Shown: piece by piece, positions 41,799 through 64,000 of the stretch
Layout: each line of letters starts with the position of its first letter
Position numbering within the stretch: the stretch's first letter is position 1
Assembly (NCBI GenBank): GCA_964562525.1
Contig: CAZLTL010000002.1
Span: 18,468 to 82,467 of the forward strand
Length of the DNA: 64,000 nucleotides
DNA from: an uncultured bacterium
GTDB taxonomy: Bacteria > Omnitrophota > Omnitrophia > Omnitrophales > Aquincolibacteriaceae
Reading direction: 5' to 3'
The notes under the pieces: model-generated
Told to the model about the DNA's origin: nothing
Database searches by the model: none
What the model saw: the letters and a program-made list of their open reading frames with translations, nothing else
Translations under genes and position numbers: made by a program

Positions 41799-41968
41799 GA
41801 AATGTATGATAAATATAAATGTAAGTCAATTGAAAAATGATTATTTATTATATTTAAGGATTTTCATCTTGGCTGGGTTGAAATGGCAGGGTTTAGCAGG
41901 CACATTTCTAAGAACATTTACTAAGTTCAACTTCGGGCGTAAAGCAGTCTTCAAAGCAAGGATAGTTG

Positions 41969-44900
41969 ATGGGACGGCATCAGCAGTTCTTAAAATTCGT
42001 GGCCATTTTTGTCATCATGTGCCTTTTGGCGCAAGATGTGGCGATGGCGTTGCCATCAACGCAGCCCGAAGGCCGGAGGCCGGAGGCTAAAGGGGGGTCT
42101 TTCTCAGAGCTCCGGGTTCCGGGCTCCGGACTAAAAATTCATTCCAACTTAGGCAATGTCGACGAGTCTTTCGAAGGCACGAACGGTAAGCACATTACTT
42201 TCATTCTTGATGCACACGACTCCCTTGATGCGCAAAAGAATATCGTCCGAATCATTCAGCAGGCGACAAACTCCGGTATCAAAACCGTTTTTGAAGAAGG
42301 TTATGAAGGCGAGCTCAATACGGACGATTGGTTTGGAGCTATTGAAGATGACCAGATCCTCCGCAAAGTTTCCTACTATTATTTAGATCAGCTGAAAATC
42401 GGCGCCGCGGAGTTTGCGCATATTAACCGCCATAGGCGGTTAGGACGGAGGCCGGAGGCCACAGACCAGAGTTCGAATGCTTCTCAATCCTCCAGGCTTC
42501 GGGCTCCGGGCCCGCGAGTCGATTGGAAGCTGATCGGCGCGGATGATAAAGAAGCGTATCTCGAAAACGTGCGGGCTTTCGGTGATTCTGAAAAAGTTCG
42601 CGAGCAAATCTTACGCGACACACAAGCCATTCAGCGCGAACTGAAAGTCTTGGGCGATAAACAACTTTCACCTGAAGCTAAGAAATGGATTCTCGATTAC
42701 GAACGCTTTCATGATAACAGCCTTCCTTTGCTTGATTATTTAGGACGCTGGATCAAGCTTGCGCCTGAAAATGCTTGTCCGCTTTTGCGGCGCATTGTGG
42801 CGGCCGCGCAAGACCCTGAGATTGCACGTTCAATTCAAAAAACACGAGCCTCCGAAGTCTTAAGTGAAATTAAAACTTTCGAGGCAGCTGTTGAAAAACA
42901 TTTTTTTCCAAATAATCAAACGGCTGAAATTTGGCAGGCATGGAAAACCATGGCCGCAGTTGAAAAGCTTGCTGAGCTTAAAATCTCAAATCAAGATTTA
43001 AGTCACCTTAAAAACAATCTTAAAGCTCTCAAAACAGAAAATTTAGCGCGACAATTTGCCCGCGCGAAAAAGAATCCTGTTGTGATTTCAAAGCGCTGGG
43101 AAATGCTCATTCAAAACGCTTTGAGATTTTACGAGCTTGCACATAAGCGTGATGAAGCGGTGGAGCGAACTCTCAAAGAATGGGTCCGGAGGCCGGAGAC
43201 CGGAGACCCGATAAAAAAAACCAATCTCGCACCTCAAGCCTCCGGTCTCGGGCCTAGCAAGAACAGCTCAGCTGTTCTTGTTTTCGGTGGCTTTCATCGC
43301 GAAGGCATTACCGAAATTTTGCGGCGCAATGGATTTTCTTACACAGTTGTGATTCCAAAAATTATCGATTTTTCTAAGCGCCATCAAGCTCTTTACCGCG
43401 AAGCTATGAGTGTTGGGCCTAGGGGTTCAGGTTTCCGTCCCCAGGCGTCTGTTCAGGCGGCGCGGCCGCTTTCGAATTTTTATGACCCTGCATTTGGTTC
43501 GGAAATTAGAGCTGCTGAGGAAACAATCAAAGAAAACCCCGGGCGTGACTTGTCAGCCTCAGCCCTTTTGCTGCATGAAAAACTTTCAACAACCGCGGCG
43601 CATGGAATTGCTGGCGGGAATCTGAGCCGTCCCTCAGGTTCTCCCAACACGCGCCGCCTTTTAAATTCTGAAAAACTCCCAGGGTTGCGGGCCGCATCTC
43701 CGGGAGTTGGAACGGTTATGCCCCACGCCCGCTCCGAAAGCCGCGCTAAAAAAACAGTTGAGCAATTAGTTGATGAGGCAGAAAAGTTAATTCGAGACGA
43801 AACATCTATAAGAGGATGGTGGAAAGAAAACATTCAAAATGCGAATCAGAATCAAGCGGGCAAGGGGAGCCGCTCCACCAACTTCTCAATTGCATTTGGA
43901 GAAATCATTCCGAGGCCTTTACGTGAAGCGAAACAGTTGCTCGAGCGATTAAATGAAAGATTCTTAGCTGAACAAACGGAGGCTTACCCTACAAACGCCA
44001 TGAATAAACTCTTTTTTATTTTTTGCGGCACCTATGTAAGTCAGAAAAAAAATCTTTGGAATAAAGCTTTTAAACAGTTGCCCGAAGATAGCCAAAAGAT
44101 TTTTAATTCAGCTGCAAAGCAGCATGATGGTCTAAAAACGCTAAGCAATCTAAGCATGTATCGGGACTCTGTTTTCAAGGCAATGGCAGAAGAGAGAGAT
44201 TTTAAGCGAGCAGATGTGCTTGAGGCTATTAAGGCGAGACAAAAATTTGAACATGAAATAGATGCCCTGATTTGGTTTTCCCGCGTCATGAAGACGCCCG
44301 AAGCAGGCAAGGCTGATCCGCTAGATACTTTTTATCGAAATTATTCCAAACCGCTTGCGCGCGATGCAACCGCCACCGTTTATCATGAACTTGTCCGCCA
44401 AGTTCCGCGCGAGCAAATTACGCCCGAGTTTCGCAATGCCATGACCGCCTACCATGATCATCTGGTTGAATATCGTGACGCATTTATTTTTATTCTCTCC
44501 GAGATTGATAAACATATGCCTTTTCGCTCAGAATCGCGGCAAAACAAAAAAGCAAATAATGCTATTCCCAAAGAAGAAGAACAGAAGGCGCGACAATTGC
44601 AGAGCCGGCTGGAAGCGTATTTACCCCAATTAGAAAAGTGGAGCGGAGAGAAAAAATTATCTGTCCGGTCAGCTCAAGCGCAAAATAAAGCGGCGGTTGA
44701 AATGGCCGCGCTTTTGAATACTTACGTTGCTGACTATGTGAGCAAAAACAAACCCAATGAAAGCGTGAATGTTTTCCGCGACAGTCTCGGGAAATCTTTG
44801 CAGATTTGGGACATAGAGACGCATGTCTTTGTCGGCGGAGATAAAGACAAAAACTTGCCCGGTGACATTCGCGGCGATTTGGTGCGGGTGAGAGATTTTA

Positions 44901-47900
44901 TAAAAACCATGCGAGTGCATTTAGACGCAGACCGCTGGCAGACATTATCCGATTATTATGACGGAAATCGTCTTCATCTTGAAAAAATAGCTGGTCGATC
45001 GGAAGCGCGCGAGCCGGAAAAATTATCGATTCGTTCGATTTTTCATCCCAAGCATTTTTGGTACAGCACTGGACTTTTTGCTTTTTTTAAAATAGCGGAC
45101 TCTCTTTTTTTGAAGTGGCGGACGTTGACAATAGGCGAGCCCGATTATTGGAAGCCTCTCGATTGGATAACCAGCGTGACCTATCCGCTATCAATAGCAA
45201 ATATTGGTTTTTATTTTCTTTTTCTGTGGAGGTCTTCTTCTTGGAATGAAGCCGTCACGCAGAAAGTTGCGCACATTATTTTGACCGGAGTCCCGACGCT
45301 GTTTTTTGTCTTGGAATTCGTAGGCCCGTATATTTTTCCTTCGGGAATGACGGGGCATATTTTCGACCCCGACGATGCCGCCGCTGTTTTATTATCCGGG
45401 GTTATTCTGCGGCTACTGCATTCCACCAAGCTTCCTCCAGCAAAACGCTCAGAAGCGCGGGATTTAGCTGCGCCGGACAAGGAAGCGGTTCAACGTGTCT
45501 TTGATAAAGTCACGGAAGGCAACCCGCTTTCGGCGGAAGATTTAGAGATTGCTGTGCGGCAAGCGGTTGCTGAAAGCCGTGCGTGGTTAATTGGGCGGGT
45601 TAAAAATGCTATGAGCGCGGACGAGCTGAAAAAAATTCAGGAAGAGGCTGCCGCAAAAAAAACCGATGAAAACGAGATCATTCTTTCTGGAAAAAACTGC
45701 GCGGGGCAATGCGGGTATTCATCGGCGGATGTGATGAACCGGCTTTACTCGATTTTGGGCGATAAGGCGCTGATTCGCCGCATTCAAGCGCATGACGAGT
45801 TTGGTGTGAAGCAAAGGCAAAAGCATCTTTTTGTTTTAGCGGCATTGCCTGATCAGTCTAAAAGTTTTCTGATCGACCTAACTTTTACTCAATTTTTGAA
45901 TTCAGGCTGGCTGCCGCTTGATTTAATTGGCCGTGAATTAAAAAACCGTGATGGCAAGCGCGAAGCGCAGGGCCTCAGTTCGCTTTTGCTTCACGGGTAT
46001 GTTGATCTCAACCGTAACAAAGATTTTTTGACCGATTATGCCTACAGTTTTATTTCAGGTTCGGAAGATGATGACGCGCATTATCCCGCCCAATTCTTAC
46101 CCGCGGACTTGATAACTCTTGCGCCTAACGCTATTTCACGGCCCTTGTCTGATTTTTTAACGTTGGATGTGAACTCTGAAGCCGCTTTCGAAACCGCGCT
46201 TCAAGAGAGAGAGCTTAATTTTGATTTGCTGGCCCAAGAGCGCCGTGAGCGTTTGAAGGAAATGTTTTTAAAATATGCTGCGCGCTCTGAAGTGCGCGGG
46301 CTTTCTCAGGCTGAAGCAGAAAAAATTTCAAAGCTCCATGCAATTTATATGGATGTCATGCGGAATAAATCAGGCGCGTGGAAAGACGGGGCTGAAAAAG
46401 TAGAGTCTGCCGGATTTTTAGTCACAGGGGTTGGTTATTATCCGATTGATACGGACAATGAACTCGAACATTTGCTGGCAATTTTTCCAAAAATTCGCGA
46501 TAAGACAAATTCAAGTCAACCTCTTCGCTTTCTTGATTTAGGATCAGGCGCCGGCAAGCTTTTGGTACAAGCGTTGATGCTCGATAGCAATCTTAATGGC
46601 GTTGGCATTGAATATGATCAAGTGCTGCATGAAGCTTCTTTGGATCTCGCTGAGGAAGCCGCCAAGCAAAAACTCATTTCTCGTGAGAGGGCGCGTTTTT
46701 TGAAAGGGGATTTTTCTGCCCCTGAGTTTGAAAAAGAGATTTCTTCCGCGGATGTTCTTTTCCACTATCAGGCAAGCTCCTTTGATCCCGCGCCCCTTGA
46801 GCAAGCACTGATTCGTTCGATGCGGCCTGGCACCAAGCTTTTAGTGTATGGTTCATCCCGTGATTATTTTCGAAGGTTATCGGCAGACCTTGGCTTTGAA
46901 CGAGTGTTTGATGAGGCCGCGCGAGTGATAACTTACAAAAGAAACTTTATGCCGCGCGAGCCCATCTCTTATCAAGATACCGCCGTTGTTTTTGTGCACA
47001 CCGCGGGCATGGGCGATCATTCGCTGCCGTTGGCATTGGATAACCGCCGCGTGATTAAAGACGCAGTAAAAGCGATGCAGAATTTAGGCGGCAAGGAACT
47101 CGAATTTCATATTGATGGGCATCCGAGCTATTTACCGCCGCGACCCGACCGCATCCGTTCCAGACAAAAAAATACAGCCGCGCTGACTTCGCCCTTTAGT
47201 TACGATTTTGATCCTGTCCGCAAGGCGCAAAGGTTTGTTATGGCCGGCGGTGAGTGCGAGGCTTGCTTTCAAGCCGCGCTCACTTCACTGCTGGAAGAAG
47301 GCAATGAGGAAGCAACGCCGAAAGAAATTCACTTAGCCGCGGACGCTGTTTACCAAGTTGTTCCGGTCCTGAATGAAGATGACCCCCGCGGAGTGCATAA
47401 TGAATCTGCTCCGGTATCCGCGGAGCATCTTTTGAAAATGGTTGAGCAAACGGCAGCGCTAAAACAGCTGAGAAATTCCAGCGAAGTTACCCGTCCGCAA
47501 TATTTTTTAAACGGAAGCCCGGCGTCTTCAAAAACAAAAATTATTATTTGGAGCAATCATCGCGAAATGATTGATTGGATTCGCACGGATCAAAAAAGAT
47601 CTGAAGCGCGTGAAGCCGCAGCTATTCCCGTTAGGCCGGCGAATTTAACGGTTAAAAAATTTGACCGCGCACCGGCTGCGTTAAAGCACTGGGTTACCAA
47701 GGCGGAAGAAGAGCCTTGGGGTGTTTTGGAAGAAAACAGTCCGCCGTTTGTGTTGCAAGACGGTGTTTTGACATTGGCGCTTGGCGAGGATAACGCGAAA
47801 TATTTTTTCCGGCCTTTCCCAGAACGAACATTGGGCCTTGAAACGGTTCAAATCAATGAATCTTGGACGGAAGAGGGACAAATAAGATTTACAGTTGTCA

Positions 47901-50900
47901 AAAAACTTCCGGGCAATCGGCTGATTGTGAAAGGGTTTGTTGTCTCGAATGAATCAGAAGAAGTTTCCATCAGCGCTAAAACAAAAATCCGCGTCCGCAA
48001 AATTTTAGAGTTAAAAGAAAATATTGCCGGGCGCGTTGCCGGAGGAACGGTTTATCCGCAAAGCGTGATTGCTGCCGAGACGCCTAAAAGAAAAATACTC
48101 CCAACCTTTTTGCCCGTTGAAAAGGTTGTCGTTCCGACTGTCGAAATTGCCCAGGTGGCAAACATCCCTGAAAATAGCCCAGTGAAAATGGTAGCGAGGA
48201 AAAAATTAGCCGTCATTGCCGCGCTTCCGGCTGATTTTGATTGGGAAAAGCTCTCCGCACAGTTGCCCGCGTTTGAAAAGAATGAACTTCTCGGAGAAAC
48301 TACCGAGCGTGGGTATTTCAACTTACGCGTTGGCGAGAAAATGGTTTATGTCATGACGAATTTGGGGGTCAAAGACAAGCGCGAAGTTTTTGTTCGATCT
48401 GCCGAGGTTATCGGCAAGGGATATCGGTTAGTTTTAGGTTTTTCAGGCACGGATCAAACCACCACGCTGTGGATGGGCCATTTTCGCACGCGAGCTTTTG
48501 ATCAAGCCGCGAATTCAAAAACAGGCACCGAGATTTTTGAAATTTTAGATGAAGAGACTTGGACAGAAAAGTTTTTTGCGGAGCTTTTGCTTAAGCCGGA
48601 TGAGAAAAGCTGGGAAGAAATTCTAAAGCCTTTTGGAAATGAGATTGCGATGAATTTAGGCAAGGTTTATCAGAATGGTTTTCGCAAGGTTAAATTGGGA
48701 GATGATTTGTGGGCCGAAATCAGTGTTGCACCGCACAAATACGCAGGCTATTCGATACAAGTCGTGTCCGTTCGGCCGGAAGATGACTTGCTTCGGGTCG
48801 AGCTTTTTCTGACCAGCCCCGACGGTTTAACTAATGTGACATTGATTCGGTATGTATCCAGCGAAAAGGAGAAAGCTCAAAGCAAAGGCGCTGCTTTGGG
48901 AAAAGAAGTTTTTTACCGCCGGCTCTTGACCGAAGCCGATAGCATAGATTTAAGAGCCGGAAAAGAAATTGCCAGAAAAACAAAGCGCGAAGAGAATGCC
49001 GCCATTTTTCAAGCCCTCCCCGCTGATTTCATCGCGACCTTATCTCCGTTAGAGCAAAAAGTTGTCGCGCAGCTTGCTCAAAATCCGGAAATTTCAAATC
49101 AAGAAATTGCGAAGGCTTTGAATTCTTCTAAGCCGTCGGTGAGCAATGCGATTCAGAGGATTCGATTCAAAGCGAAAGTCAGAAATTTGATTCCGAAACT
49201 CGAAGAAAAAATCGGGCGTTCCGAAGCGCGGATTTTAGATTACGAAAAAGTCAGCGATATGGAGTTAACGGATTCAGTTCGGCAGGCTTGGTTCGCGAAG
49301 TACAAGCTAGGCATGGTTGAGCACGCGCTTGAAATTATTGATTTTTCAGGTAACACGCGTGACGCGCGCAAAGATGTCGGCACTCAAGCGTATGGCTTTT
49401 CATTGCCTGGCGATTCCAAGGGTGTTTTTGTCGCGTTTCCATTCGCGCAAATGGAAGGGGAGCGCGACAACGGTTATTTCGCTCTCTTTGATCAACAGGG
49501 CGAAATGGTGGGCGAAGGGCTTTATTCCGCGGCGGTTATTTCCGACAGTAAGCGGAAAATTCTAACTTTAAGGTTTCAGGTTTTACCCGAATATCGCAGT
49601 CAAGGTTATGGCCGAGTCATGACTGAAGCGATTCGTTATTTTGCGGATCAGCTTGATTCCGAAATGCAGCTTTTCTTTCATTTTAATTCGGACGAAGTCA
49701 ATAATCTTGCTTTGCGAAAATCGTTAACTGGGCTTGGGTTTCAGGAAATACCCCAAGTGTCGCATATGATGCAGCTTCCACGCTTGGCTTCTTCCCGTTC
49801 CGAAGCGCGCGGCACAGATAGCCAAGATCTCGATCGATTAGCGTATCTTTGGGGGCAGTATACGGAGGCGCTCAAAGAGAATCCCGTTCAGCGGTCTCAT
49901 GCGGGGACTGCTTTTTCAAGATGGCTTATGACGCAATCCGCGCTTGATTTGGGTGCCGGAGCGTATAGCTTTGTGGATACGTTGAAAAACTTAGGCAATC
50001 CTAATACCTACCGCATGGACACGAAACCTGTTCGGCACTCCGACTGGGGGACTTACGCAACACACTTGCAGCAGTCTTTTTACAATCCTTGGCCGCTTGG
50101 AGATGAGTCACTCAAAATTATTTATAGCCATTGGGCTTTAGGCGGAGAAGTTCCCGGGCTTTACCCAAGCGCTTGGGATATGCCGCTTGAAAAGAATCCG
50201 GATGCTACGTTTGCAAATGAACTGAAGCGCACGCTTCATCCCGATGGATTTGCTTATTTTGAATTAGGTTTTGAGCCCAACCCCGATCTGGTTCGCGCGT
50301 TGCGCCGTGCTGGCTTGCACGTTCAGTCGCCACCGGAGCACGCAGAAGATTTTGGAGAGCAATCTTTAGCGGTGATTGTGACGAAAAAACCATTTGCCGA
50401 TGTGATCAATCAAATTCAGGCTGAATTGGAAGCGAATAATCCGCGGCTTGCCGAAAATGTAAATCAAGAAGTCAGAGGAATGCGCTCCGAGGCGAGGCCA
50501 ACAGAAAATTTCAAACCGCAAGTGATTCAGCATCGTGCTAACACTCGGGATTTTATTGAGGCCGCTTATGAGGCCGGCGCGGATGGGTTTGAAATGGATA
50601 TTCAAATGACAAAAGACGGGGTCATGATTTTAAATCACGATCCATTTCAAATTGGCAATGCAGCCCACTTCTCCGTAGAGCTGAATTATTCAGAGCTTAA
50701 AGCAGCTAATCCCGAACTTTTGACTTTGAAGGATGCGTTAAATTTGCCGGTGTTGCGTCAAAAGACGGCTTATTTGCATGTTAATAATTTGGCGACCATG
50801 CCTTCTGTGCGCGAGAAACTGAAGCAAAAAGGCAAAGAGGCTCTTTTGGATAACTATGATGTTAGGGCCGTTTCTGCGATTCAAAAAGAAATTCAAAATT

Positions 50901-56900: not shown

Positions 56901-57127
56901 GAGGGGAAGCGATTGAGTTTTCTTCTGTTCCGGGCACAAAAACATTACGCGGCAAAAAGATTGCCGCAGCGGATATTCGTACAGTCGAAGGCATGGCATC
57001 CGGATTTTTAGCCGCCATGGGTATGGAATATACCGAAGACAAAGGCTTTGTCCGCGTGACGAGCGGGATCGAAATCAGCCGCTTCTTCGAGTTTCTCTCT
57101 TGGCAAGTATTCGCTGCTTCAGCGTAA
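41969..57127 (+). CDS. giant (5052 aa) multi-domain, multi-pass membrane protein. Order: signal peptide; TraB/GumN/Tiki-like domain; TM cluster; SAM-MTase; LuxR-type HTH; GNAT; GDPD; CheR-like MTase; TM cluster; long alpha-rich C-terminal region. 17 R-S-E-A-R-type motifs
   Basis: Single 15.2-kb open frame. TTG at 41966 or ATG at 41969 with AAGGA 7 nt upstream. Signal peptide MMGRHQQFLKFVAIFVIMCLLAQDVAMA. Domains read from sequence: ITFILDAHDS...VLVFGGFHREGITEILRRNGFSYTVV (TraB/GumN GAGHL-like); LDLGSGAGKL (class I MTase); LSPLEQKVVAQLAQNPEISNQEIAKALNSSKPSVSNAIQRI (LuxR/sigma-4 HTH); RSQGYGRVM (GNAT); HRANTRDFIEAAYEAGADGFEMDIQMTKDGVMILNHD (GDPD); VLVLGSSSGEE...HLILANNVFYLL (CheR-like). Hydrophobic helix clusters at ~45050-45420 and ~52250-52500. 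Confidence 0.9.
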   Translation: MGRHQQFLKFVAIFVIMCLLAQDVAMALPSTQPEGRRPEAKGGSFSELRVPGSGLKIHSNLGNVDESFEGTNGKHITFILDAHDSLDAQKNIVRIIQQATNSGIKTVFEEGYEGELNTDDWFGAIEDDQILRKVSYYYLDQLKIGAAEFAHINRHRRLGRRPEATDQSSNASQSSRLRAPGPRVDWKLIGADDKEAYLENVRAFGDSEKVREQILRDTQAIQRELKVLGDKQLSPEAKKWILDYERFHDNSLPLLDYLGRWIKLAPENACPLLRRIVAAAQDPEIARSIQKTRASEVLSEIKTFEAAVEKHFFPNNQTAEIWQAWKTMAAVEKLAELKISNQDLSHLKNNLKALKTENLARQFARAKKNPVVISKRWEMLIQNALRFYELAHKRDEAVERTLKEWVRRPETGDPIKKTNLAPQASGLGPSKNSSAVLVFGGFHREGITEILRRNGFSYTVVIPKIIDFSKRHQALYREAMSVGPRGSGFRPQASVQAARPLSNFYDPAFGSEIRAAEETIKENPGRDLSASALLLHEKLSTTAAHGIAGGNLSRPSGSPNTRRLLNSEKLPGLRAASPGVGTVMPHARSESRAKKTVEQLVDEAEKLIRDETSIRGWWKENIQNANQNQAGKGSRSTNFSIAFGEIIPRPLREAKQLLERLNERFLAEQTEAYPTNAMNKLFFIFCGTYVSQKKNLWNKAFKQLPEDSQKIFNSAAKQHDGLKTLSNLSMYRDSVFKAMAEERDFKRADVLEAIKARQKFEHEIDALIWFSRVMKTPEAGKADPLDTFYRNYSKPLARDATATVYHELVRQVPREQITPEFRNAMTAYHDHLVEYRDAFIFILSEIDKHMPFRSESRQNKKANNAIPKEEEQKARQLQSRLEAYLPQLEKWSGEKKLSVRSAQAQNKAAVEMAALLNTYVADYVSKNKPNESVNVFRDSLGKSLQIWDIETHVFVGGDKDKNLPGDIRGDLVRVRDFIKTMRVHLDADRWQTLSDYYDGNRLHLEKIAGRSEAREPEKLSIRSIFHPKHFWYSTGLFAFFKIADSLFLKWRTLTIGEPDYWKPLDWITSVTYPLSIANIGFYFLFLWRSSSWNEAVTQKVAHIILTGVPTLFFVLEFVGPYIFPSGMTGHIFDPDDAAAVLLSGVILRLLHSTKLPPAKRSEARDLAAPDKEAVQRVFDKVTEGNPLSAEDLEIAVRQAVAESRAWLIGRVKNAMSADELKKIQEEAAAKKTDENEIILSGKNCAGQCGYSSADVMNRLYSILGDKALIRRIQAHDEFGVKQRQKHLFVLAALPDQSKSFLIDLTFTQFLNSGWLPLDLIGRELKNRDGKREAQGLSSLLLHGYVDLNRNKDFLTDYAYSFISGSEDDDAHYPAQFLPADLITLAPNAISRPLSDFLTLDVNSEAAFETALQERELNFDLLAQERRERLKEMFLKYAARSEVRGLSQAEAEKISKLHAIYMDVMRNKSGAWKDGAEKVESAGFLVTGVGYYPIDTDNELEHLLAIFPKIRDKTNSSQPLRFLDLGSGAGKLLVQALMLDSNLNGVGIEYDQVLHEASLDLAEEAAKQKLISRERARFLKGDFSAPEFEKEISSADVLFHYQASSFDPAPLEQALIRSMRPGTKLLVYGSSRDYFRRLSADLGFERVFDEAARVITYKRNFMPREPISYQDTAVVFVHTAGMGDHSLPLALDNRRVIKDAVKAMQNLGGKELEFHIDGHPSYLPPRPDRIRSRQKNTAALTSPFSYDFDPVRKAQRFVMAGGECEACFQAALTSLLEEGNEEATPKEIHLAADAVYQVVPVLNEDDPRGVHNESAPVSAEHLLKMVEQTAALKQLRNSSEVTRPQYFLNGSPASSKTKIIIWSNHREMIDWIRTDQKRSEAREAAAIPVRPANLTVKKFDRAPAALKHWVTKAEEEPWGVLEENSPPFVLQDGVLTLALGEDNAKYFFRPFPERTLGLETVQINESWTEEGQIRFTVVKKLPGNRLIVKGFVVSNESEEVSISAKTKIRVRKILELKENIAGRVAGGTVYPQSVIAAETPKRKILPTFLPVEKVVVPTVEIAQVANIPENSPVKMVARKKLAVIAALPADFDWEKLSAQLPAFEKNELLGETTERGYFNLRVGEKMVYVMTNLGVKDKREVFVRSAEVIGKGYRLVLGFSGTDQTTTLWMGHFRTRAFDQAANSKTGTEIFEILDEETWTEKFFAELLLKPDEKSWEEILKPFGNEIAMNLGKVYQNGFRKVKLGDDLWAEISVAPHKYAGYSIQVVSVRPEDDLLRVELFLTSPDGLTNVTLIRYVSSEKEKAQSKGAALGKEVFYRRLLTEADSIDLRAGKEIARKTKREENAAIFQALPADFIATLSPLEQKVVAQLAQNPEISNQEIAKALNSSKPSVSNAIQRIRFKAKVRNLIPKLEEKIGRSEARILDYEKVSDMELTDSVRQAWFAKYKLGMVEHALEIIDFSGNTRDARKDVGTQAYGFSLPGDSKGVFVAFPFAQMEGERDNGYFALFDQQGEMVGEGLYSAAVISDSKRKILTLRFQVLPEYRSQGYGRVMTEAIRYFADQLDSEMQLFFHFNSDEVNNLALRKSLTGLGFQEIPQVSHMMQLPRLASSRSEARGTDSQDLDRLAYLWGQYTEALKENPVQRSHAGTAFSRWLMTQSALDLGAGAYSFVDTLKNLGNPNTYRMDTKPVRHSDWGTYATHLQQSFYNPWPLGDESLKIIYSHWALGGEVPGLYPSAWDMPLEKNPDATFANELKRTLHPDGFAYFELGFEPNPDLVRALRRAGLHVQSPPEHAEDFGEQSLAVIVTKKPFADVINQIQAELEANNPRLAENVNQEVRGMRSEARPTENFKPQVIQHRANTRDFIEAAYEAGADGFEMDIQMTKDGVMILNHDPFQIGNAAHFSVELNYSELKAANPELLTLKDALNLPVLRQKTAYLHVNNLATMPSVREKLKQKGKEALLDNYDVRAVSAIQKEIQNSAGLSRLVFSSFDVKQLLLLRKEAVSARFILDTDYGANDPEINQVLDLAAEYKLTGVGLPGERITVDLLQDVNARGLQADYGASPEILRALMPLKTGNLVVVDDVAATRKILTSEEEEKAHSKMRAVRLNGELRPTQSSFLERHDPQWKILREQYLDGILQRAKQDAGDSKNPVIKVLVLGSSSGEELVRAYYEIVTYLESRGEKLARTAADEGWKLQITGIEKDDVVAERARKNLQGETPFFAYDLDVEPNRTYIEALLQRVSRDSDLVAEAIEVRTQNAVEALKETDSAHLILANNVFYLLGSVYPREDRAAIELLSRRFRNSVIATTYDWNTQIYALGGKPGEKELPFVRAESKTLAKYIPDETAYLFFSPNPDFNLVASLRSEARGFFTKAWNLASSRDARLKVAQNWLEKGLVDLEERKEITKDEAQKLLSAARENRDVGVLLEILGIHLILKVTPHPGAFGTTAAMTGLATGQWWLVPLYFLTGIFRGIATFALIRKTKLPHKWFLILGSVIPVAGNFSVPAYMLRQPELRQTGKAMMAVAKLRLKQKARIIPSHDKRSEMREFKAEWNEEALTQIEKANPGTRAKILQVLEIPLSQLVLDQDYDDQDGRSVLIYLDEPVDFVDKQTGLRETIRTIKVKGAAFENEAVLPDFNLLRLDPGVAPDQAENIGRKLMEPSFTKEGRFLLTPKRPTAEGAMRLDMARQEYQISQKSFYAGLPVPIALGMAEFQNKNSDGTSAAAVILGVASARDLRVTNLIGFKTQAYLQSIAQPMDSAERAALKAFFEEDVVRLAGAQGQALRAFNDRGFIHPQFHLGNGGANIDLDEGLASIYLMDHEGSLERNKLTEAQFLGWLVLGLKQAAKRIHDLTDKRYYSGPKLNWTSAFIRGYFGRYADRPEIKKYLSPKNSALFIEDLHAILFDAEKQPVFEINSPLTRLLAQMYGLKELRRSEARNALEIFDEAADNLLAYPKALLHSRGLEPYLDAFDREHYVWDEAQQHWASKDFHPTITGAKRLTLGSWEDIQRASPDEHARMKNFVAIRLNTTEGVRSFYAFDDHGWSLQAYAEAHWRREVPAFGNTQIFIDKHGDDRKVHGGQHYKEMFQAMLRQSPSANNDIDFDMGGFNNTLWFSGFIPKENHHRYHANMGWFREMLAGFPSNQAVLLNVDTDATEFIVGEWKNETPLGLGEDDFESLAIDLTNLRDKYSLTPLTAHFTTTHFENENLADFSLHSNRIQYGDTELARFLPRVAPFIYFVKDQPVELRDQAIEQAAQEHAAQWERDFGAKFNRSEMRKHEISAELFFVRSFQEKWARRTFIEQHWLLRAIARGLELSSQDAAFWVLEWDFAKFAVLNRLAQNLKRFKGLKQEDLARGMSFETLIFDVMEDIRDPEYRFVRKFLGWEEPPADFFRMADEAVSRVSDYVKLLEPDQARYGAWVIRNAALDYQSYFDYLVNVIGRDDFFEFDSEVEKIEQKFILSRRSEMRADWNDEIGLWSSPQVIERLSQFVLDPLSVSLWRLKASAWRIPESDVNSVRDEVLRRSKEWPRAAIFQREDFSALSFLHLPWSYLKARSALMDDPDRFAVYSLWEELESLSKKIRESRIYTYETIRTAARYSGIWGHGTASSVLREARSDYERWRFRAVHDHDLEDEWAMLNIMIEGEISAGEGAPFAGMELSGNTPDSWGPFWILTRGFESFYQFHPSGREDHWAYLVPNQAAIDFFERGLELAVSKKLMTEEDRQDVCSKLVTYDEFNALEELLWNIRDQKISISEAVAQAGVTRSVRSESRASSNDTVDEVQLAKNEERYAQIMKTALKRVKPGQTGELVEIDSGLSAEEDAQFDQELKQLSVYFAEAGDSAKAAVMFWLIKSDEMAADLAKDVISLKGLGEDRQVMIRTTSPPSALLRAGELRTTNSHSQAVSGTKSRILISRTELGSMSEENFKAFYKFFYQNQELELSVYGSGSKNPEEETRVGLLEAVPSAKTGRVSFFLDPSSAAQGGEAIEFSSVPGTKTLRGKKIAAADIRTVEGMASGFLAAMGMEYTEDKGFVRVTSGIEISRFFEFLSWQVFAASA

Positions 57128-57235: not shown

Positions 57236-58333
57236 ATGGGTTTTAAGTGCGGTATCGTCGGGTTGCCCAATGTCGGCAAATCCACAATTTTTAATGCGAT
57301 CAATAAAGAGTCGCGCGCGCAGGCGGCGAATTATCCGTTTTGCACGATTGAGCCCAACAAGGGAATTGTTCCCGTTCCCGATAACCGCCTTGAAGTTCTG
57401 ACTAAGCTGATTAAACCGCAAACCAAAGTTCCGACCACGGTTGAGTTTTATGATATCGCCGGATTGGTTAAAGGGGCGGCGGAAGGCGAAGGTCTCGGCA
57501 ATAAATTCTTAACCCATATTCGCGAAGTCGAAGCGATCATGCATGTGGTGCGCTGTTTTGAAGACGCGAATATTTTGCATGTTTCCGGCAGCGTGAACCC
57601 CGCGCGCGACATTGAAGTGATTGATACCGAGCTTTGCCTGAAAGATCTTGAAACCATCGGCACGCGTTTTACCAAGAATGAAAAGCTCGCGCGCAGCGGC
57701 GATAAAGAAGCTTTGGCGATTCAGCCCACTTTAGACAAAATTAAAAAAGCACTCGAGGCAGGCACGCCTTTGCGCAAAATCGGTCTCACCGAAGATGAAA
57801 AGTTTACGGTGAAAGAATGCAGCTTTCTGACTTTGAAGCCTGTGTTTTATTGCGCAAACGTGGCTGAGGGCGATTTGCCCAATGGCGGCCCGCTTGTCAA
57901 TGAAGTGCGCAAAATCGCAGATGCCGAAGGCGCGAAAGTGGTTGTGATCTCCGGTAAAGTGGAATCTGAAATCATTGAGCTTTCTGAAGAAGAACAAAAA
58001 AGTTTTCTCGAAGCCTTAGGCCTTGAAGAGCCCGGCATGCATAAGCTGATTCGCTGCGGATATGAAACTTTGAATTTGATTACTTATCTTACCGCTGGTG
58101 AAAAAGAAGTTCGCGCCTGGACGATTATGCGCGGTATGACCGCGCCGCAAGCTGCTGGCGTGATTCATAGCGATTTTGAGCGCGGTTTTATTCGCGCAGA
58201 AGTCATGAGTTATGAAGACTTGGTTGCCTGCGGTTCTGAAAAAGCCGTTAAGGAAAAAGGCCTCCTTCGCGTCGAAGGCAAAGAATACGTCGTCAAAGAC
58301 GGCGATGTTATGTTGTTTCGCTTCTCAGTCTAG
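57236..58333 (+). CDS. ychF: ribosome-binding ATPase YchF (Obg family)
   Basis: 365 aa. G1 GIVGLPNVGKST. TGS domain. Typical YchF length. Confidence 0.95.
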   Translation: MGFKCGIVGLPNVGKSTIFNAINKESRAQAANYPFCTIEPNKGIVPVPDNRLEVLTKLIKPQTKVPTTVEFYDIAGLVKGAAEGEGLGNKFLTHIREVEAIMHVVRCFEDANILHVSGSVNPARDIEVIDTELCLKDLETIGTRFTKNEKLARSGDKEALAIQPTLDKIKKALEAGTPLRKIGLTEDEKFTVKECSFLTLKPVFYCANVAEGDLPNGGPLVNEVRKIADAEGAKVVVISGKVESEIIELSEEEQKSFLEALGLEEPGMHKLIRCGYETLNLITYLTAGEKEVRAWTIMRGMTAPQAAGVIHSDFERGFIRAEVMSYEDLVACGSEKAVKEKGLLRVEGKEYVVKDGDVMLFRFSV

Positions 58334-58469: not shown

Positions 58470-61400
58470 ATGTATCAAATCCTAAGTAACAATTTGGGCA
58501 AGCACTTAAGGCTGGTTTTTGCGGTCTTTTTCTTTTGTGCCCAGGTCTTTCCGGAAGTCTTACCCGCGTTTGCGCAATCATCCGCTTTACCGGTTGCGCA
58601 ATTTCATTTGCCCGAGGAAGAGGGTCATGTTGAAACTGTGTTTGAGGGCCGGAATTCCGGCTGGGTTGCGATTATCAAAGATGCGCACGCGATTCCTCAA
58701 ACCCAAAATTCAATTGCCCAAATTCTGGAACGCCTGGAGCAATCTTACGGGGTGGATTGGGTCGGCGCCGAAGGTGCGGCAGGAATTTTTCAAACACAGC
58801 TTTTTCGATCTTTTCCCGACCCCCGTGTTTTAAAAGAAAAGCTGAGCGATTTTATCAATCGCGGCGAGCTGGGAGGTGCCGCGATTGCGGCATTAAATTC
58901 AAAAGGAGCCGCTGTTTTTGAAGGGATAGAAAATCCGCAAACCTATGAAGCCGGATTGCGCGATTATCAGCGCTCGCGCAAAGATTTGGAAGCTTGGCAA
59001 AGTTCTCTCAGCCAGCTCGAGCGCGAAGTTGTTTTGCTTAAGAAGAAACACTATTCGCTGCGCGCCCAAAGCTGGGACTTTAAGTTTGCGCGCCTGGACG
59101 CGCCCGACCCTGAAGCGCGGGCATGGGCGGGCGCTTTGCTTGAAATGCGCCGCCGCATTCCTTACTTTTCAAAAAAATATCCAAATTTAAACGCAGTTTG
59201 GACTGAAATGCGAATTTCGCGCGCAGGAGCGGATTCTATGCGGCCGCGGATCCAAAATTGGAAAGAGGCGATGGAGCAAATAGACCCGGCTCTGAGACAG
59301 CTTGCGGCATGGCAAGCTGATTTTCAGACCTGGAGAACGGGCAGTATAAGTGATGCGGAATATGCCGTCCGCTTGCAGGCTTTCTGCGACGCGCGCGAGC
59401 TAAAAATGAATTTACCGGAAAGTTTATCCGCACTTGTGAGTTTAGGCGGTCGTCTTAAAGCTTTGCGCGGCGGAGCTTGGGTTCAAGAGTGGCGCCTGGC
59501 TCGAGCGGAAGCTGAGAAGCTTGTTTTTGCGGGCCAAGCTGAAAAGCAGGTTTTTGAATTGGATCAAACCTTAACAAAATTAAAAAAAGCAGTCGATCTC
59601 AAAATCAGCCGAGACGAATGGATTCGCCTTTCGCAAAATGAAAACAGAAACGGCAACGCAAGCGGCGTTCATGATGCAGAAATTGAGGCGGCTAAGACGG
59701 AGCTTCAAAATTTAAATCAGCGGTTTTTGGAATCCGCAGCGGCTGATTTTTATAAAGGTGCGGTGAAGCGTGAAGATTATTTTGAAAATAAACTGGCGCA
59801 AAGCTTAAAAGCTAAAAAGGGTCGGCGAGCCGCGGTTGTTTTGGGCGGATTTCACGCCGAGGCACTTGCCGACAGCTTGCGTAAAAAAGGAATTTCATTT
59901 GTTGTCTTGATGCCGGCGACCGGCGCTATTCCGGAAACAACGCTTTATGAAAATTTGATGCGCGGAGAGGTTTCCTGGAGTCCTTACTTCAAAATTGTGA
60001 ATGGCCGCATCCGAATTTACGAATCCTTTGCCGCCGCAATGATTCACCGATTATTGAACTTAAATCAGCAAAAACAAAAACCCGAACAAGTTTTAGCTCA
60101 CTTCAAAAGTTGGCGCGAAAATTTGATACGCGGCATTCTGAATTCGCGGCAAAGCCAAGAGGCTTTAAGTGCGCTAACTTTGCTTGACCGGGAAATCTTG
60201 TCATCGCTTTACGGTGAAGCATTTGAAACGGCTCAGGCGAAAGCTTTGAATCAGCTCGCGCCATCTTCCTTTAAAGATGCTCAGGGTCTTTTTCGTGCTG
60301 CTTCCGGCATGACGCTTCAACCCTGGGCCGCGGCACCGCTTGGAGATTTGGATGCGGCGACTATGGAAGCGCGGGTGATTGCTCCTGAACTCGATGTGAC
60401 GGCCCGGTCGGAGTTTCGCGAAGACGATGAATCGGAAGAAGGCGAGACGGGATGGATTCATTTGTCTGCCTGGACTCTGGCCGTTATCAGCGCGGTTGTT
60501 ATCGGTTGGCAAGTTTGGAAAATGTACGAAAACGCGGATCGGTTTTATACGCGCCAAGCAGAACTTAAAGCCGCTGAAGTTCAGAAACAGCGGCTGGAAA
60601 TCGAATCCAAGAAAAAAATGGAAGAGCGCCGCCGCGAACTTCAATTACGTAAAACAAAAGCAAAGAACGCACCTTTTGAAAGCAAACCCAAAGAACAAGC
60701 TTCGGCACGCTCCGAGATGCGCGTTATGCCGCGCGAGCGCAAGGTGTCGGATCAAGAACTGTCTCAACTTTGGAAAGCCAAGCTTGAGAGTGACGGATCT
60801 TTTTCAAAAAAAGTTTCCAATCTTGAAGATCTTAAAATAATCAGTGATTCCGCGCAGGAAAAAGGCTATGTGATTGTCCTGCCTTCGGTTGCTTCGGTAG
60901 AGCAAATGCTGCAGCTTAAATTTCCGGCAAAGATTCGTATTTACCCGCGGCAAGTTGAAGCGGAGAATTTTGAAAAGGCGATGGAAGTCATGCTCGAGCG
61001 TCAAATTCGTGCGGGGCGCGTGGTGGAAAAGGAGGGTGTTTTAAAGTGGCAGCCGTTCATGCAGATTTTTGAGGACGGAAAAACGGTGATTTATGTTGTG
61101 TATCAAAAGGGAAAGCTGGTGCCTGAGCTGTTTGAAGGAGGCGTGCCCGCGGAAATTCAAAAAAATGCGGACCATGTTTTTGTGTTTAATCCCGGCCGCG
61201 CTAAGCGTCCGGGAGCCGCCGCACCGGCCGCGCAAAAACTCCCTGACGATCACCCTGATTTAAATCCTCCCGCGAAAACAATCGAAGTGGCGCCGCCCTT
61301 TATTGAAAGCCAAATTCCCGAGCAAATGTTTTTTTGGTCTGCCGCGGAAGGCGCGCAAGATCTGAGTCAGCGATGGATGGTGGTCGTGAACCGCTATCCG

Positions 61401-64000
61401 GTTTTACCGCCGTCGCTGGATGGTAAAACCACGGATCAGCCGCAAGCGATTGTTCTTTCGCGTGATGTTGAAAGAACTTTGGGGCGGAGCTCATACGCCC
61501 AAAGCTGGATGCATCGCCCTGAAAACTTAAGCGATATTCTTCAAACTCACGCAGAGCTGGAAGGCGTACCGCAAGAAAAACGTGCCGCGCTTTCGGATTT
61601 AGCCGAATACCTTTCTTTTGCGGTGGGATCAATTTTCAACAGCGAAAAACCGGATAGCCACAATGTTTTGATCGTCGGTAAAAATACAAATCATGTTTTG
61701 GCGGTAAACGGATACCGGCATCCGGACGCGCCGCTTGCCGCGCATGGCGGAGCGAGCCAACTGCATGGGCACGCGCAGCATGTGAACGCTTATCTTCCGA
61801 TAAAAAACGCGCCGCCCGAGGCATTTACAAAAATCGCAACGCTTCCGCTGGGCGAAAATTCTGCCGACGTTTTAGTGATGAATTGGGAAGGCAAAACAGC
61901 GCTTGTGGTGGATTATGGTTCCCAACGCATTTTTATTTTCAGCCGACCGAATGGGAAGCCCGCCAAATTTGACGGCAATTTTTCATTTCTTGAATTGGGC
62001 GGGATGATCGTTGTCGCCTCTATTGCACGACTTTTTCAGTTGAATCAAGCCGAAACAGAGTCTTTGGCGCAAGCTCAGGATCCTTCGACCTGGCTTTTTG
62101 ATCATCGCAAGACCCTGGTGGAGCGCGGCGTTGATCCCCGTCTTTTAGATGATGCGCGCGAAGCGTTTTCCAGTCAGTCTGAGCCGATGACAGCGGATGC
62201 TGAAACAATGACGCGGCTTGCGTATGATTTGAAAGACTTGCATTATTTGCGCGGTTTTCAGGCAGCCGAAGAGTTCTCGCAAATTATCCGCGACCCGCTT
62301 TTTAGTGAGATGTCCTATTCGCCTACCGAGGTGGCAAAATTACTTTCGCAAGACATGCCCCGCTTTGAATGGGTGCGCAGCTTGGGCGGAAAACCCCTTT
62401 TGATCAGCACAAAGTTCCCGCAGGGAATTTTGGCGTTAATGATGCAGTTTCGTGAACTTGCGGTTTGGGGCCGCGAAGCAGAGCGCGGGCAAGTGGCGCT
62501 GCGCAGTATGCGTTTTCACGCGAAACGAGGGGATCTTTTCCGTTATTTGAAAGACTGGGCGCAAACAGGCGGAAAAAAACTTCAGCCGTTTACGCGTAAA
62601 ATCGAAAGCTTGGCGGAGCAATCCGAAAAATATTTACGCGAGGCGGAATCATTTTCCAATGCGGCACAGCAAGAGGCTTCTTTTGAGAAAGCCCTCGCGG
62701 CGAACTATGAGGCGCTGCAATTAATCGATCAGCTGGGTGAGTGGATGGCGGAAGAAGCATTGAAATTTTATCTGAGCGAAAGCAAGTTTTCTGAGCGGGA
62801 GTGGTTTTATCGAAACGTTGTTTCCAATCGCAATCTACGCAAATACATCAGCCGAATTTTGGCTAAAGATCCATCGGCTGTTAGTTTAAAAACGGATATC
62901 GCAGATGGTGTCCAAGCTTATCGCATCTCTTATCAAGGAAAGAATTTTATTCTTGGAATTAATACCGGCGCGATTTCTATCCCACAGGAAAAAGACGGTT
63001 TGCCCGACCGCGCTTTGGCGCATGTGTCCGTCAATGAAGAATGGAAATCTTTTTTGACGGAAGCAGGTGTGACAGGGCAGATGCGCTATCAAATTACAGA
63101 TGCTAAAACAGGAAAAACAGACCGGAGGTTTTTAAGTGCGGCGGAAGAGCTTCCGCTGGAAATTCCTAAGCCGGAGGGCTTGAGATTGCTTCAAATTGAA
63201 CCTCAAAGCAAAGCCGCGTTTGGGGTGAAGTCTCCGCAGCCTTCCGGTCTGAACGCGCGCGAAATACAAGCCTCCATTGAGCGCGCTTTGAATGATCCGG
63301 AGAGTCTCAAATTTACTCTCCAAGATTTGATCGATGAGGTTGAGGAAACGGCTGTCGATGAAGCCGGAAGAAAGAGGCTGACGGCGTTTATGTTTTTGAT
63401 CGCGGTTATTGAACCCGCCCTGATTGAAAAAGTTAAAAATTGGAATATTTTCGCTTACGCGCTATTGAAGCGGCTGATGGCTCAAAACCCCGAACTTTTT
63501 TCCAAACAAGCTGCTGTTGTTTTCCATAAGCCGGACCGTAATACTACGATTGTGCTTTCGCGGTCGCTGAATGGAGGCGGCAACGGCCAAAATATTGTTT
63601 TTGCTTTGCAATTCCATGATGCTCCCGTCAACCCCAATGACGGCAAAGTTTGGTCGGTTATCCGCGACTTAGGCTCTGATGACAAGCCGATTTCTTTAGA
63701 CCGCGACTCCATGTATCAGGTTCAAAATCTTTTGGAGCCAAACCAAACCATTTATGAAAGACCCGCTTCGGGCGCTGAGTTTATGCGGCATTGGGACATT
63801 GGTATTCCCGTAAGAGACGCGGGATCGGGACATTTGAAAAGACAGCATGGATGGGGTGTGGATGCTTACCGATTCTATCCTGTTTATCCTGAGACTCCGA
63901 AAGTGCGCCTTAAAACCTCTTTTGCTTTGCCGGTCATTCCCGAATTGATGGGTGCTTTTAATTTGATGGATGTAGGCGCAGAAAAAAGAACCGATGGAAC
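58470..64000 (+). CDS. second giant gene, partial (over 1843 aa within the window, 3' end beyond the window). Paralogous N-terminal domain to the first giant protein. Carries a TM helix and RSE[FM]R motifs
   Basis: Frame 0 is open from the ATG at 58470 to the window edge. No stop-bounded ORF is listed there; the other listed + ORFs are in another frame. Signal peptide MYQILSNNLGKHLRLVFAVFFFCAQVFPEVLPAFA. ETVFEGRNSGWVAIIKDAHAI and AAVVLGGFHAEALADSLRKKGISFVVLMP align with ESFEGTNGKHITFILDAHDS and AVLVFGGFHREGITEILRRNGFSYTVVIP of the first giant protein. TM helix WTLAVISAVVIGWQVW. Motifs TARSEFRED (aa 646) and ARSEMRVMP (aa 747). Confidence 0.8.
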   Translation, partial: MYQILSNNLGKHLRLVFAVFFFCAQVFPEVLPAFAQSSALPVAQFHLPEEEGHVETVFEGRNSGWVAIIKDAHAIPQTQNSIAQILERLEQSYGVDWVGAEGAAGIFQTQLFRSFPDPRVLKEKLSDFINRGELGGAAIAALNSKGAAVFEGIENPQTYEAGLRDYQRSRKDLEAWQSSLSQLEREVVLLKKKHYSLRAQSWDFKFARLDAPDPEARAWAGALLEMRRRIPYFSKKYPNLNAVWTEMRISRAGADSMRPRIQNWKEAMEQIDPALRQLAAWQADFQTWRTGSISDAEYAVRLQAFCDARELKMNLPESLSALVSLGGRLKALRGGAWVQEWRLARAEAEKLVFAGQAEKQVFELDQTLTKLKKAVDLKISRDEWIRLSQNENRNGNASGVHDAEIEAAKTELQNLNQRFLESAAADFYKGAVKREDYFENKLAQSLKAKKGRRAAVVLGGFHAEALADSLRKKGISFVVLMPATGAIPETTLYENLMRGEVSWSPYFKIVNGRIRIYESFAAAMIHRLLNLNQQKQKPEQVLAHFKSWRENLIRGILNSRQSQEALSALTLLDREILSSLYGEAFETAQAKALNQLAPSSFKDAQGLFRAASGMTLQPWAAAPLGDLDAATMEARVIAPELDVTARSEFREDDESEEGETGWIHLSAWTLAVISAVVIGWQVWKMYENADRFYTRQAELKAAEVQKQRLEIESKKKMEERRRELQLRKTKAKNAPFESKPKEQASARSEMRVMPRERKVSDQELSQLWKAKLESDGSFSKKVSNLEDLKIISDSAQEKGYVIVLPSVASVEQMLQLKFPAKIRIYPRQVEAENFEKAMEVMLERQIRAGRVVEKEGVLKWQPFMQIFEDGKTVIYVVYQKGKLVPELFEGGVPAEIQKNADHVFVFNPGRAKRPGAAAPAAQKLPDDHPDLNPPAKTIEVAPPFIESQIPEQMFFWSAAEGAQDLSQRWMVVVNRYPVLPPSLDGKTTDQPQAIVLSRDVERTLGRSSYAQSWMHRPENLSDILQTHAELEGVPQEKRAALSDLAEYLSFAVGSIFNSEKPDSHNVLIVGKNTNHVLAVNGYRHPDAPLAAHGGASQLHGHAQHVNAYLPIKNAPPEAFTKIATLPLGENSADVLVMNWEGKTALVVDYGSQRIFIFSRPNGKPAKFDGNFSFLELGGMIVVASIARLFQLNQAETESLAQAQDPSTWLFDHRKTLVERGVDPRLLDDAREAFSSQSEPMTADAETMTRLAYDLKDLHYLRGFQAAEEFSQIIRDPLFSEMSYSPTEVAKLLSQDMPRFEWVRSLGGKPLLISTKFPQGILALMMQFRELAVWGREAERGQVALRSMRFHAKRGDLFRYLKDWAQTGGKKLQPFTRKIESLAEQSEKYLREAESFSNAAQQEASFEKALAANYEALQLIDQLGEWMAEEALKFYLSESKFSEREWFYRNVVSNRNLRKYISRILAKDPSAVSLKTDIADGVQAYRISYQGKNFILGINTGAISIPQEKDGLPDRALAHVSVNEEWKSFLTEAGVTGQMRYQITDAKTGKTDRRFLSAAEELPLEIPKPEGLRLLQIEPQSKAAFGVKSPQPSGLNAREIQASIERALNDPESLKFTLQDLIDEVEETAVDEAGRKRLTAFMFLIAVIEPALIEKVKNWNIFAYALLKRLMAQNPELFSKQAAVVFHKPDRNTTIVLSRSLNGGGNGQNIVFALQFHDAPVNPNDGKVWSVIRDLGSDDKPISLDRDSMYQVQNLLEPNQTIYERPASGAEFMRHWDIGIPVRDAGSGHLKRQHGWGVDAYRFYPVYPETPKVRLKTSFALPVIPELMGAFNLMDVGAEKRTDG

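Follow-up and report, generated by a model that had tools for sequence, protein, structure and literature searches.

Giant Omnitrophota proteins with modules bordered by an R-[S/A]-E-x-R motif: candidate polyproteins with a conserved N-terminal head domain

A hallmark of the bacterial phylum Omnitrophota is its giant open reading frames (ORFs), the function of which is an open problem. The published examples, referred to as 'multi-enzyme metabolic clusters' or Archaeovorins, are at least 10,000 amino acids (aa) long and carry many enzyme domains per chain together with a signal peptide and transmembrane segments. Their cleavage is treated as open in the literature, missing cleavage points having blocked a module-wise structural analysis, and the published work on these proteins describes neither a junction motif nor a conserved head or tail domain. 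Here, we analysed two giant genes, hereafter gene 1 and gene 2, which flank ychF in a stretch of 64,000 nucleotides (the window) from an uncultured bacterium of the Omnitrophota family Aquincolibacteriaceae (assembly GCA_964562525.1, contig CAZLTL010000002.1, positions 18,468 to 82,467, forward strand). Their products consist of an N-terminal domain (the head) and a series of modules, each of which opens with a pentapeptide of the type R-[S/A]-E-x-R. They come from the same phylum as the published giants, share the features listed above and show the class 1 traits of a 2026 preprint (Omnitrophota; methyltransferase, GNAT, GDPD and HTH domains), but are smaller with 5053 and about 2680 aa, respectively. 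No published description of the motif (RSEAR, RSEMR, RSEVR), of the head, of the tail or of cleavage or polyproteins in Omnitrophota was found.

The architecture of these proteins also recalls two systems from outside the phylum. As in MARTX toxins, the chains are very large, their ends are conserved, and between these lies an array of unrelated modules that differs by strain owing to the exchange of modules. MARTX toxins leave the cell by type I secretion and their junction is a loose Leu-X site, whereas the Omnitrophota proteins carry a Sec-type signal peptide and a strict pentapeptide, and some of their modules are membrane proteins. The release of modules at unstructured linkers by an in-built protease, a feature of MARTX toxins, would have its parallel in the processing proposed here for the Omnitrophota proteins. 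Pfam detected neither RTX repeats nor the cysteine protease domain in 19 segments of genes 1 and 2 (E≤0.1) or in nine segments of the giant genes on contig L001 of a sister strain (E≤0.01). With the polyproteins of picorna-, flavi- and nidoviruses, the proteins share one long ORF, unrelated units, a short recurring motif and a candidate processing enzyme within the chain. Unlike these, they are encoded by chromosomal bacterial genes among housekeeping genes, with several paralogues per genome, their cargo is hypervariable even between strains, and their cleavage is inferred only. For the head, the closest described proteins are those of the TIKI, TraB-PrgY-GumN, Ere and ChaN families. The TIKI superfamily, in which HopBA1, Bcr135, ChaN and RRSP are placed, has a 2His/2Glu catalytic motif and includes the sequence-specific endopeptidases Tiki and RRSP (PMC6254334). 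Few solved proteins have the Ere fold, which consists of an α/β major lobe and a four-helix minor lobe; in EreC, the residues E47, H50, E78, R261 and H289 are catalytic, Ere enzymes act as esterases, and ChaN is a haem-binding protein (PMC7979712).

We propose, with a probability of roughly 45%, that genes 1 and 2 encode Omnitrophota-specific, Sec-targeted giant polyproteins ('cargo trains') in which the motif serves as processing site and the head is a candidate enzyme. According to this proposal, the signal peptide would send the chain to Sec export, the sequence R-[S/A]-E-(V/L/M/A/I)-R at the opening of each module would be an endoproteolytic site, cutting at which yields separate proteins, and the head (about 450 aa, with a predicted α/β core plus helical lobe that resembles the TIKI/Ere/ChaN fold) would be the prime candidate for the processing enzyme, since it is always present in cis and enzyme-like. 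The motif resembles a protease recognition site because its residue identity is strict and its context is not conserved. We favour the polyprotein reading because the motif borders exchangeable units, because it adjoins domain edges and lies in predicted disorder, and because the units have the size of proteins. The head is a natural candidate for the enzyme because it is the only module common to essentially all members, has conserved acid, His and Arg residues, and may belong to a fold that includes sequence-specific endopeptidases; the chain may thus process itself. The analysis shows how the chains are built, how the motif is distributed, that the modules evolve independently, where the family occurs and that the head bears a weak resemblance in fold; cutting at the motif, the side of the cut, the enzyme and the compartment are inferred. 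If cleavage occurs, this would be an unusual bacterial gene-expression strategy with a new sequence-specific protease and recognition site. It would parallel the polyproteins of viruses, but in a cell and from chromosomal genes, and its cargo would be reshuffled between strains in the manner of cassettes. The motif would then represent a cleavage map for the giants of the phylum. It already provides a testable cleavage hypothesis and a rule for splitting giants into units of a size suitable for structure prediction, with the head as candidate enzyme and the C-terminus as candidate signal.

The motif, which the earlier note had touched on in passing, is the strongest feature of these proteins. 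In gene 1, RSExR occurs 15 times, compared to 0.11 occurrences expected (2000 shuffles, maximum 2), and divides the sequence into 16 pieces. A six-frame scan revealed no RSExR in the open frames of the window other than the giant genes; four further matches fall in different reading frames, and three of these directly adjoin a stop codon. Relatives of the head were collected by a scan of one genome per species, and the best 80 of the 149 loci found were analysed. These 80 loci derive from Omnitrophota metagenome-assembled genomes (MAGs) or metagenome bins, one of which is labelled Planctomycetales, there are often several per genome, and most of the head-bearing ORFs extend past the 10-kb flank that was fetched. 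RSExR was found 408 times in the 224,725 aa of the 80 head-bearing ORFs (1.8 per 1000 aa), but only 11 times in the 477,321 aa of other ORFs shorter than 600 aa from the same loci (0.02 per 1000). The remaining background motifs lie mostly in large ORFs that are either neighbouring giants cut by the edge of the locus or continuations of head-bearing ORFs with a broken frame. The consensus over 422 sites is R-S-E-(V/L/M/A/I)-R, with flanks that carry almost no information, and replacements are rare (RSExR 426, RSExK 7, KSExR 9, RSDxR 2, RTExR 4). RAExR is a true variant, as it is 8-fold enriched, shows the same preferences at position x and dominates in members without RSExR. In the head-bearing ORFs of L009, L022, L078, L035 and L080, it is the nearly exclusive form. 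A co-variation of head lineage with the RSE or RAE type of the motif was ruled out, as the RAE-dominant proteins form no head clade. Likewise, internal translation starts at the x codon were ruled out, since NTG accounts for only 43% of x codons.

Instead of being cut, the proteins may stay whole, with the motif acting as a docking or modification site in the linkers or as a folding or translation pause within a membrane-tethered multi-enzyme scaffold. This is how the 2026 preprint reads the multi-enzyme giants of Omnitrophota, namely as membrane-anchored arrays, and the predicted topology of the gene 2 product (head out, one transmembrane helix, cargo in) fits a receptor-like single polypeptide. 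We consider an intact scaffold unlikely, although it deserves to be taken seriously. The Ser hydroxyl of the motif is dispensable because RAExR is a true variant, and the replacement by Ala excludes Ser phosphorylation, O-glycosylation and self-cleavage with Ser as nucleophile. Furthermore, a scaffold offers no obvious reason for the strict identity of the R and E residues between uninformative flanks, nor for the free reordering of modules and their swapping at strain level described below.

An artefact, i.e. ordinary genes fused by errors in assembly or sequencing, or open frames without coding function, is improbable in the extreme. In a few loci, the frame breaks inside the giant ORF, as in L012 and L017, where an overlapping frame continues with junction motifs after a frame change; these breaks could be sequencing errors or real frameshifts. 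On the other hand, the frames are uninterrupted on independent assemblies and at 80 loci drawn from dozens of MAGs, there is no stop codon in 15 kb, and substitutions show a strong third-position bias. The latter was determined for gene 2, whose visible part differs from its counterpart on L001 at 139, 103 and 543 sites in codon positions 1, 2 and 3, respectively, with 466 synonymous versus 209 non-synonymous codon changes. Since the differences concentrate at third positions, the gene 2 frame encodes a protein under purifying selection. On L001, gene 2 is complete with 2680 aa, a third motif at aa 2421 and the C-terminus IASMA, so that the frame is uninterrupted also beyond the end of the window, as the earlier note on this DNA, made from the sequence alone, had supposed.

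The modules evolve as independent units bordered by the motif. The closest comparison is with L001 and a second contig, L002. Several modules of gene 1 are found end to end in the gene 1 homologues on these contigs: m07 is 95% identical to m03 of the L001 homologue, m12 is 88% identical to m06 of the same protein, and m14 and m15 are 89-91% and 84-85% identical, respectively, to their counterparts in L001 and L002. Other modules differ as a whole. m08 is absent from the visible part (3,296 aa) of the L001 homologue, in which the GNAT module is succeeded by another one, m11 has shrunk to a remnant of 35 aa, and m13 is represented by an equally long version with 34% identity between neighbouring modules of 88-89% identity. 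In addition, two modules of 430 and 639 aa that gene 1 lacks separate the counterparts of m14 and m15 in L001 and L002. No breakpoint between the window and L001 or L002 is more than about 15 nt away from a motif. L004 represents the next closest species (head 65% identical) and has relatives of m04, m05 and m10 at the 10th, 7th and 8th position, respectively. Thus, modules have been gained, lost, replaced and reordered at the motif among the window, L001, L002 and L004. Clustering of 485 modules from 83 proteins gave 353 clusters, 309 of which are singletons, and the head is the sole large cluster with 76 members compared to at most 5 in any other. With a median of 326 aa (interquartile range 217-506), internal modules are as long as ordinary proteins. 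Recognised Pfam domains start or stop within about 20 aa of a motif; for example, the glycerophosphodiester phosphodiesterase domain of m09 begins 19 aa past the motif and the helix-turn-helix of m06 stops 19 aa short of the next one.

The exchange of whole modules with breakpoints so close to the motif would also be expected if the motif were the protein footprint of a DNA cassette system, in which a core for site-specific recombination inserts in-frame cassettes. In agreement with this, the first two codons are biased: at the 432 sites of the window and of L004-L083, the first Arg is encoded by CGY in 80% of cases (background 42%) and by AGR in 5.5% (background 24%), and Ser by TCN in 95% (background 69%), while the last Arg is at background. 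However, third positions are free and the flanking 15 nt on each side hardly depart from background, which leaves no extended or palindromic site; moreover, the x position is selected as an amino acid (V/L/M/A/I) across different codons, and no recombinase adjoins the genes in the window. We regard such a cassette system as highly improbable. Since the third codon positions of the motif vary, selection acts mainly on the peptide, and the codon bias points to shared descent of the junctions or a weak constraint at the nucleotide level.

The heads of genes 1 and 2 are distant paralogues. BLASTP aligned them in two colinear segments (E 7e-9 and 1e-8, 21-24% identity) that span the DAH, EG and GGFH elements, which bears out the paralogy of the N-termini that the earlier note had read from shared motifs. 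The conserved elements of the gene 1 head are DAH, EEG, AEFAHINR, GAD, RD and GGFH. In the AlphaFold model of this head (pLDDT of the core about 90 over aa 50-480), an α/β core is predicted with strands ending in ILDAH, VFEE, LIGAD and VLVFGG(FH) and with a helical insertion of about 210 aa between the third and the fourth of these strands; the stretch between head and first junction is predicted to be disordered. The head carries three copies of RRPE[A/T] (42074-42088, 42446-42460 and 43187-43201; aa 37, 161 and 408), which lie in or adjoin low-confidence loops of the model (aa 23-46, 159-181 and 414-428). At least the second copy is inserted relative to most heads, and the 80 other head-bearing ORFs contain none.

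When the two head models, which are 22% identical in sequence, were compared to the PDB using Foldseek, HopBA1 (5t09) ranked first (E 0.42) and Bcr135 (3b55) 18th for gene 1, none of these matches being significant, and EreC (6xcs) ranked fourth for gene 2 with the highest probability of the list (0.75) over 408 aligned columns. Structures of the TIKI/Ere group (HopBA1 5T09, Bcr135 3B55, EreC 6XCQ/6XCS) were the best non-helical matches for both heads. The predicted parallel-sheet α/β core with a helical lobe between the core halves may correspond to that of TIKI, TraB-PrgY-GumN, Ere and ChaN proteins. Both heads conserve D82-x-H84, E110/E111, R395 and G441-G-F-H444 at the ends of predicted strands, and this series of putative catalytic residues (acid-x-His, Glu, Arg and G-x-x-His) runs along the chain in the order of E47/H50, E78, R261 and H289 of EreC (PMC6254334, PMC7979712). 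Because matches to a rare fold were obtained three times from two independent models and the order of residues agrees, a distant relationship of the heads to the TIKI/Ere fold is somewhat the likelier outcome on these predictions. The heads differ from the known TIKI, Ere and ChaN proteins by the lack of significant sequence or profile similarity, by the additional elements AEYAHINR and GAD, by a far larger helical insertion, and by their invariable position at the N-terminus of a giant modular protein; their enzymatic activity is putative.

Several results weigh against cutting by the head. With respect to the family, the earlier note had likened both heads to the TraB/GumN/Tiki proteins, and a profile search of the heads, set beforehand as the test of this comparison, yielded no TraB/GumN/Tiki match. 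In Pfam, TraB/GumN, Tiki, ChaN and Ere matched neither head at E≤0.1, and with the threshold relaxed to E≤10 none of these families matched in 18 head-bearing proteins. Searches of the heads against NCBIfam and PADLOC gave no match either, and a profile of the head alignment gave only chance matches, to ribosomal L35, among PDB sequences. An hhalign comparison of 94 heads with 94 diverse full-length relatives of E. coli YbaP, a TraB family protein, gave a probability of 0.3% (E 0.21) and failed to bring the motifs into register, and no relationship was detected when the N- and C-terminal halves of the head were taken separately. Membership of the heads in the TraB/GumN family (PF01963) is therefore not supported by these sequence comparisons; what stands of the original comparison is the weak resemblance in fold. 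Regarding the fold, all matches of the heads have E>0.05 and superpose poorly on a global scale. A TIKI/Ere fold, moreover, does not imply a protease, as the examples of the Ere esterases and of the haem-binding ChaN show. Regarding gene 2, its head keeps the series of candidate catalytic residues, yet lacks the otherwise conserved AEYAHINR. Its two motifs are predicted to face opposite sides of the membrane, the first coming before the acidic stretch and the helix and the second after the K/R-rich stretch, so that an exported, periplasmic head would have no access to the second one once the chain is inserted in the membrane. Finally, the cargo of gene 2 is a single stretch of 1674 aa without any further motif in L001, and not every domain boundary can therefore be marked.

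Some of these results would be accommodated if a separate enzyme cut the polyproteins at R-[S/A]-E-x-R in trans and the head were, for example, a periplasmic esterase or hydrolase acting on envelope or prey material, or a sensor. In gene 2, motifs are predicted on either side of the membrane, most known members of the fold are not proteases (PMC7979712), and the gene 2 protein has retained its junction motifs although its head has lost AEYAHINR. Conversely, the window encodes no candidate protease, the head alone forms a large cluster among the 485 modules, and there is hardly any motif beyond the head-bearing ORFs and the giants that start outside the fetched locus. On balance, we judge processing by a separate enzyme to be distinctly unlikely.

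Regarding the location of the cargo, the presence of RSEFR (aa 646) and RSEMR (aa 747) in gene 2 with a hydrophobic helix between them (aa 661-679, nt 60450-60506, by hydropathy) agrees with the earlier note. The visible part of 35 of the 80 head-bearing ORFs is missing a strong transmembrane segment after the head, and some of the proposed polyproteins may thus be wholly exported. As a matter of speculation, a wholly exported cargo that depends on S-adenosylmethionine (SAM) and acetyl-CoA would be sensible only inside another cell, which would fit a predatory or parasitic lifestyle and a MARTX-like effector model; a lifestyle of this kind has been proposed for Omnitrophota in the literature.

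The C-termini of the proteins are conserved as well. A [S/A]-A end, preceded by a hydrophobic stretch (FAASA at 57110-57124 in gene 1), was found in 19 of 21 complete head-bearing ORFs and in all six giant ORFs located just upstream of a head-bearing ORF, compared to 8 of 642 control ORFs (1.2%). A tail domain of about 190 aa is common to many complete ORFs, including gene 1: a hidden Markov model (HMM) of the tail built without the lineage of the window recognised m15 of gene 1 (E 1.6e-6) and no other module among the 41 of gene 1, gene 2 and the L001/L002 homologues, the tail of gene 2 remaining undetected. The grammar of the family is therefore a signal peptide, the head, repeated units of junction and cargo, a final junction, a tail domain in many members and a [S/A]-A end. 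By analogy, this end recalls C-terminal tags of the ssrA or Prc type or a ligand of PDZ domains. It is doubtful whether the scheme holds to its full extent, i.e. that polyproteins of ordinary proteins occur throughout the phylum, are cut at R-[S/A]-E-hydrophobic-R by an N-terminal protease of the TIKI/Ere fold and use the [S/A]-A tail as a second handling signal.

The features of both genes are listed in Table 1. The gene 1 frame opens with TTG; the very next codon, ATG at 41969, coincides with the start of the closest database homologue (P0001) and is probably the true start. The N-terminus of gene 1 consists of an n-region with K/R residues, a hydrophobic core (aa 11-29) and VAMA/L, and that of gene 2 is likewise a signal-peptide-like segment, ending in PAFA/Q, as had been predicted for gene 2. 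Most modules have no Pfam match, and searches of the cargo against PDB sequences found only the GDPD domain. The helix-turn-helix of m06 was matched by Pfam HTH_24 (8.6e-6) and by the NCBIfam model sigma70-ECF (6e-5, under its cutoff). A search for m12 homologues in a large database gave no match despite the 88%-identical copy in L001; the interior of giant proteins seems to be poorly reachable by that index.

Table 1 Features of genes 1 and 2 and of ychF in the 64,000-nucleotide window. Modules are given with their length and opening motif; E-values are from the searches named.
Feature	Position	Strand	Description
Gene 1	41966..57127	+	5053 aa: signal peptide, head, 14 cargo modules, tail
Gene 1 signal-peptide-like N-terminus	41966..42049	+	aa 1-28, VAMA/L; read from sequence and hydropathy
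Gene 1 head	42104..43435	+	aa ~47-490; AlphaFold model, conservation, weak Foldseek matches
m01	43730..44524	+	265 aa, RSESR; no family match
m02	44525..44995	+	157 aa, RSESR; relative at ordinal position 3 of the L007 giant ORF
m03	44996..45445	+	150 aa, RSEAR; hydrophobic membrane-type, 3-4 candidate helices
m04	45446..46282	+	279 aa, RSEAR; relative in L004
m05	46283..47596	+	438 aa, RSEVR; SAM-dependent methyltransferase fold; Pfam DOT1 3e-6, Methyltransf_31 4e-6
m06	47597..49216	+	540 aa, RSEAR; C-terminal helix-turn-helix like sigma-70 region 4
m07	49217..49795	+	193 aa, RSEAR; GNAT-like, Pfam Acetyltransf_7 3e-4 (under its cutoff)
m08	49796..50482	+	229 aa, RSEAR; no family match
m09	50483..52051	+	523 aa, RSEAR; GDPD, Pfam 2e-15, PDB 1v8e 1e-6
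m10	52052..52588	+	179 aa, RSEAR; hydrophobic; relative in L004
m11	52589..53758	+	390 aa, RSEMR
m12	53759..54772	+	338 aa, RSEAR; relatives in 5 proteins, at differing ordinal positions
m13	54773..55345	+	191 aa, RSEMR
m14	55346..56254	+	303 aa, RSEMR
m15	56255..57124	+	290 aa, RSESR; conserved C-terminal tail domain, ends FAASA
ychF	57236..58333	+	365-aa GTPase; Pfam YchF-GTPase_C 2e-40
Gene 2	58470..64000	+	at least 1843 aa, cut by the window end
Gene 2 signal-peptide-like N-terminus	58470..58574	+	aa 1-35, PAFA/Q; sequence reading and hydropathy
Gene 2 head	58617..60029	+	keeps DAH, EG, R(ED), GGFH; no AEYAHINR
Gene 2 module 1	60405..60707	+	101 aa: RSEFR, acidic stretch, predicted transmembrane helix, K/R-rich stretch
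Gene 2 cargo	60708..64000	+	opens with RSEMR; no family match

The tandem arrangement of the giant genes around ychF, which had been described from the window and whose phylogenetic distribution the earlier note had wished to see checked, is real: gene 1 is a single ORF of 5053 aa, ychF is confirmed by Pfam, and the second frame starts at 58470. The YchF protein is identical on three further public contigs, the longest of which is L001 with the same order of giant gene, ychF and giant gene. In contrast, ychF was not found within 10 kb of any of the 80 other heads. The arrangement around ychF is lineage-specific and the position of ychF is incidental and outside the system, a role as system component being ruled out by its absence near the other heads. 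In L008, L024, L026, L066 and L068, a second giant motif-bearing ORF ends 0.1-2 kb upstream of the head-bearing ORF on the same strand. Tandem giant genes are therefore found repeatedly in the phylum, and in these five loci no ychF separates them. Scans for promoters and terminators near the giant genes were uninformative.

The other neighbours in the window are ordinary chromosomal genes, coding for a deaminase, a phosphoglucomutase, an ABC transporter, CorA and an RlmN-like radical-SAM enzyme. Upstream of gene 1, a gene for a 23S rRNA intervening-sequence protein (PF05635, 9e-25) is located at 39730-40164 (-) and is followed by an ORF of 553 aa without family match at 40137-41798 (-) that is divergent from gene 1. 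Further upstream, an ORF of 2195 aa at 25231-31818 (+) has long internal repeats and the composition of a coiled coil (E 19%, L 12%, A 12%, K 11%, Q 9%), with a sole Pfam match below threshold, and this ORF explains the AT skew of 0.36-0.39 observed at 26-32 kb.

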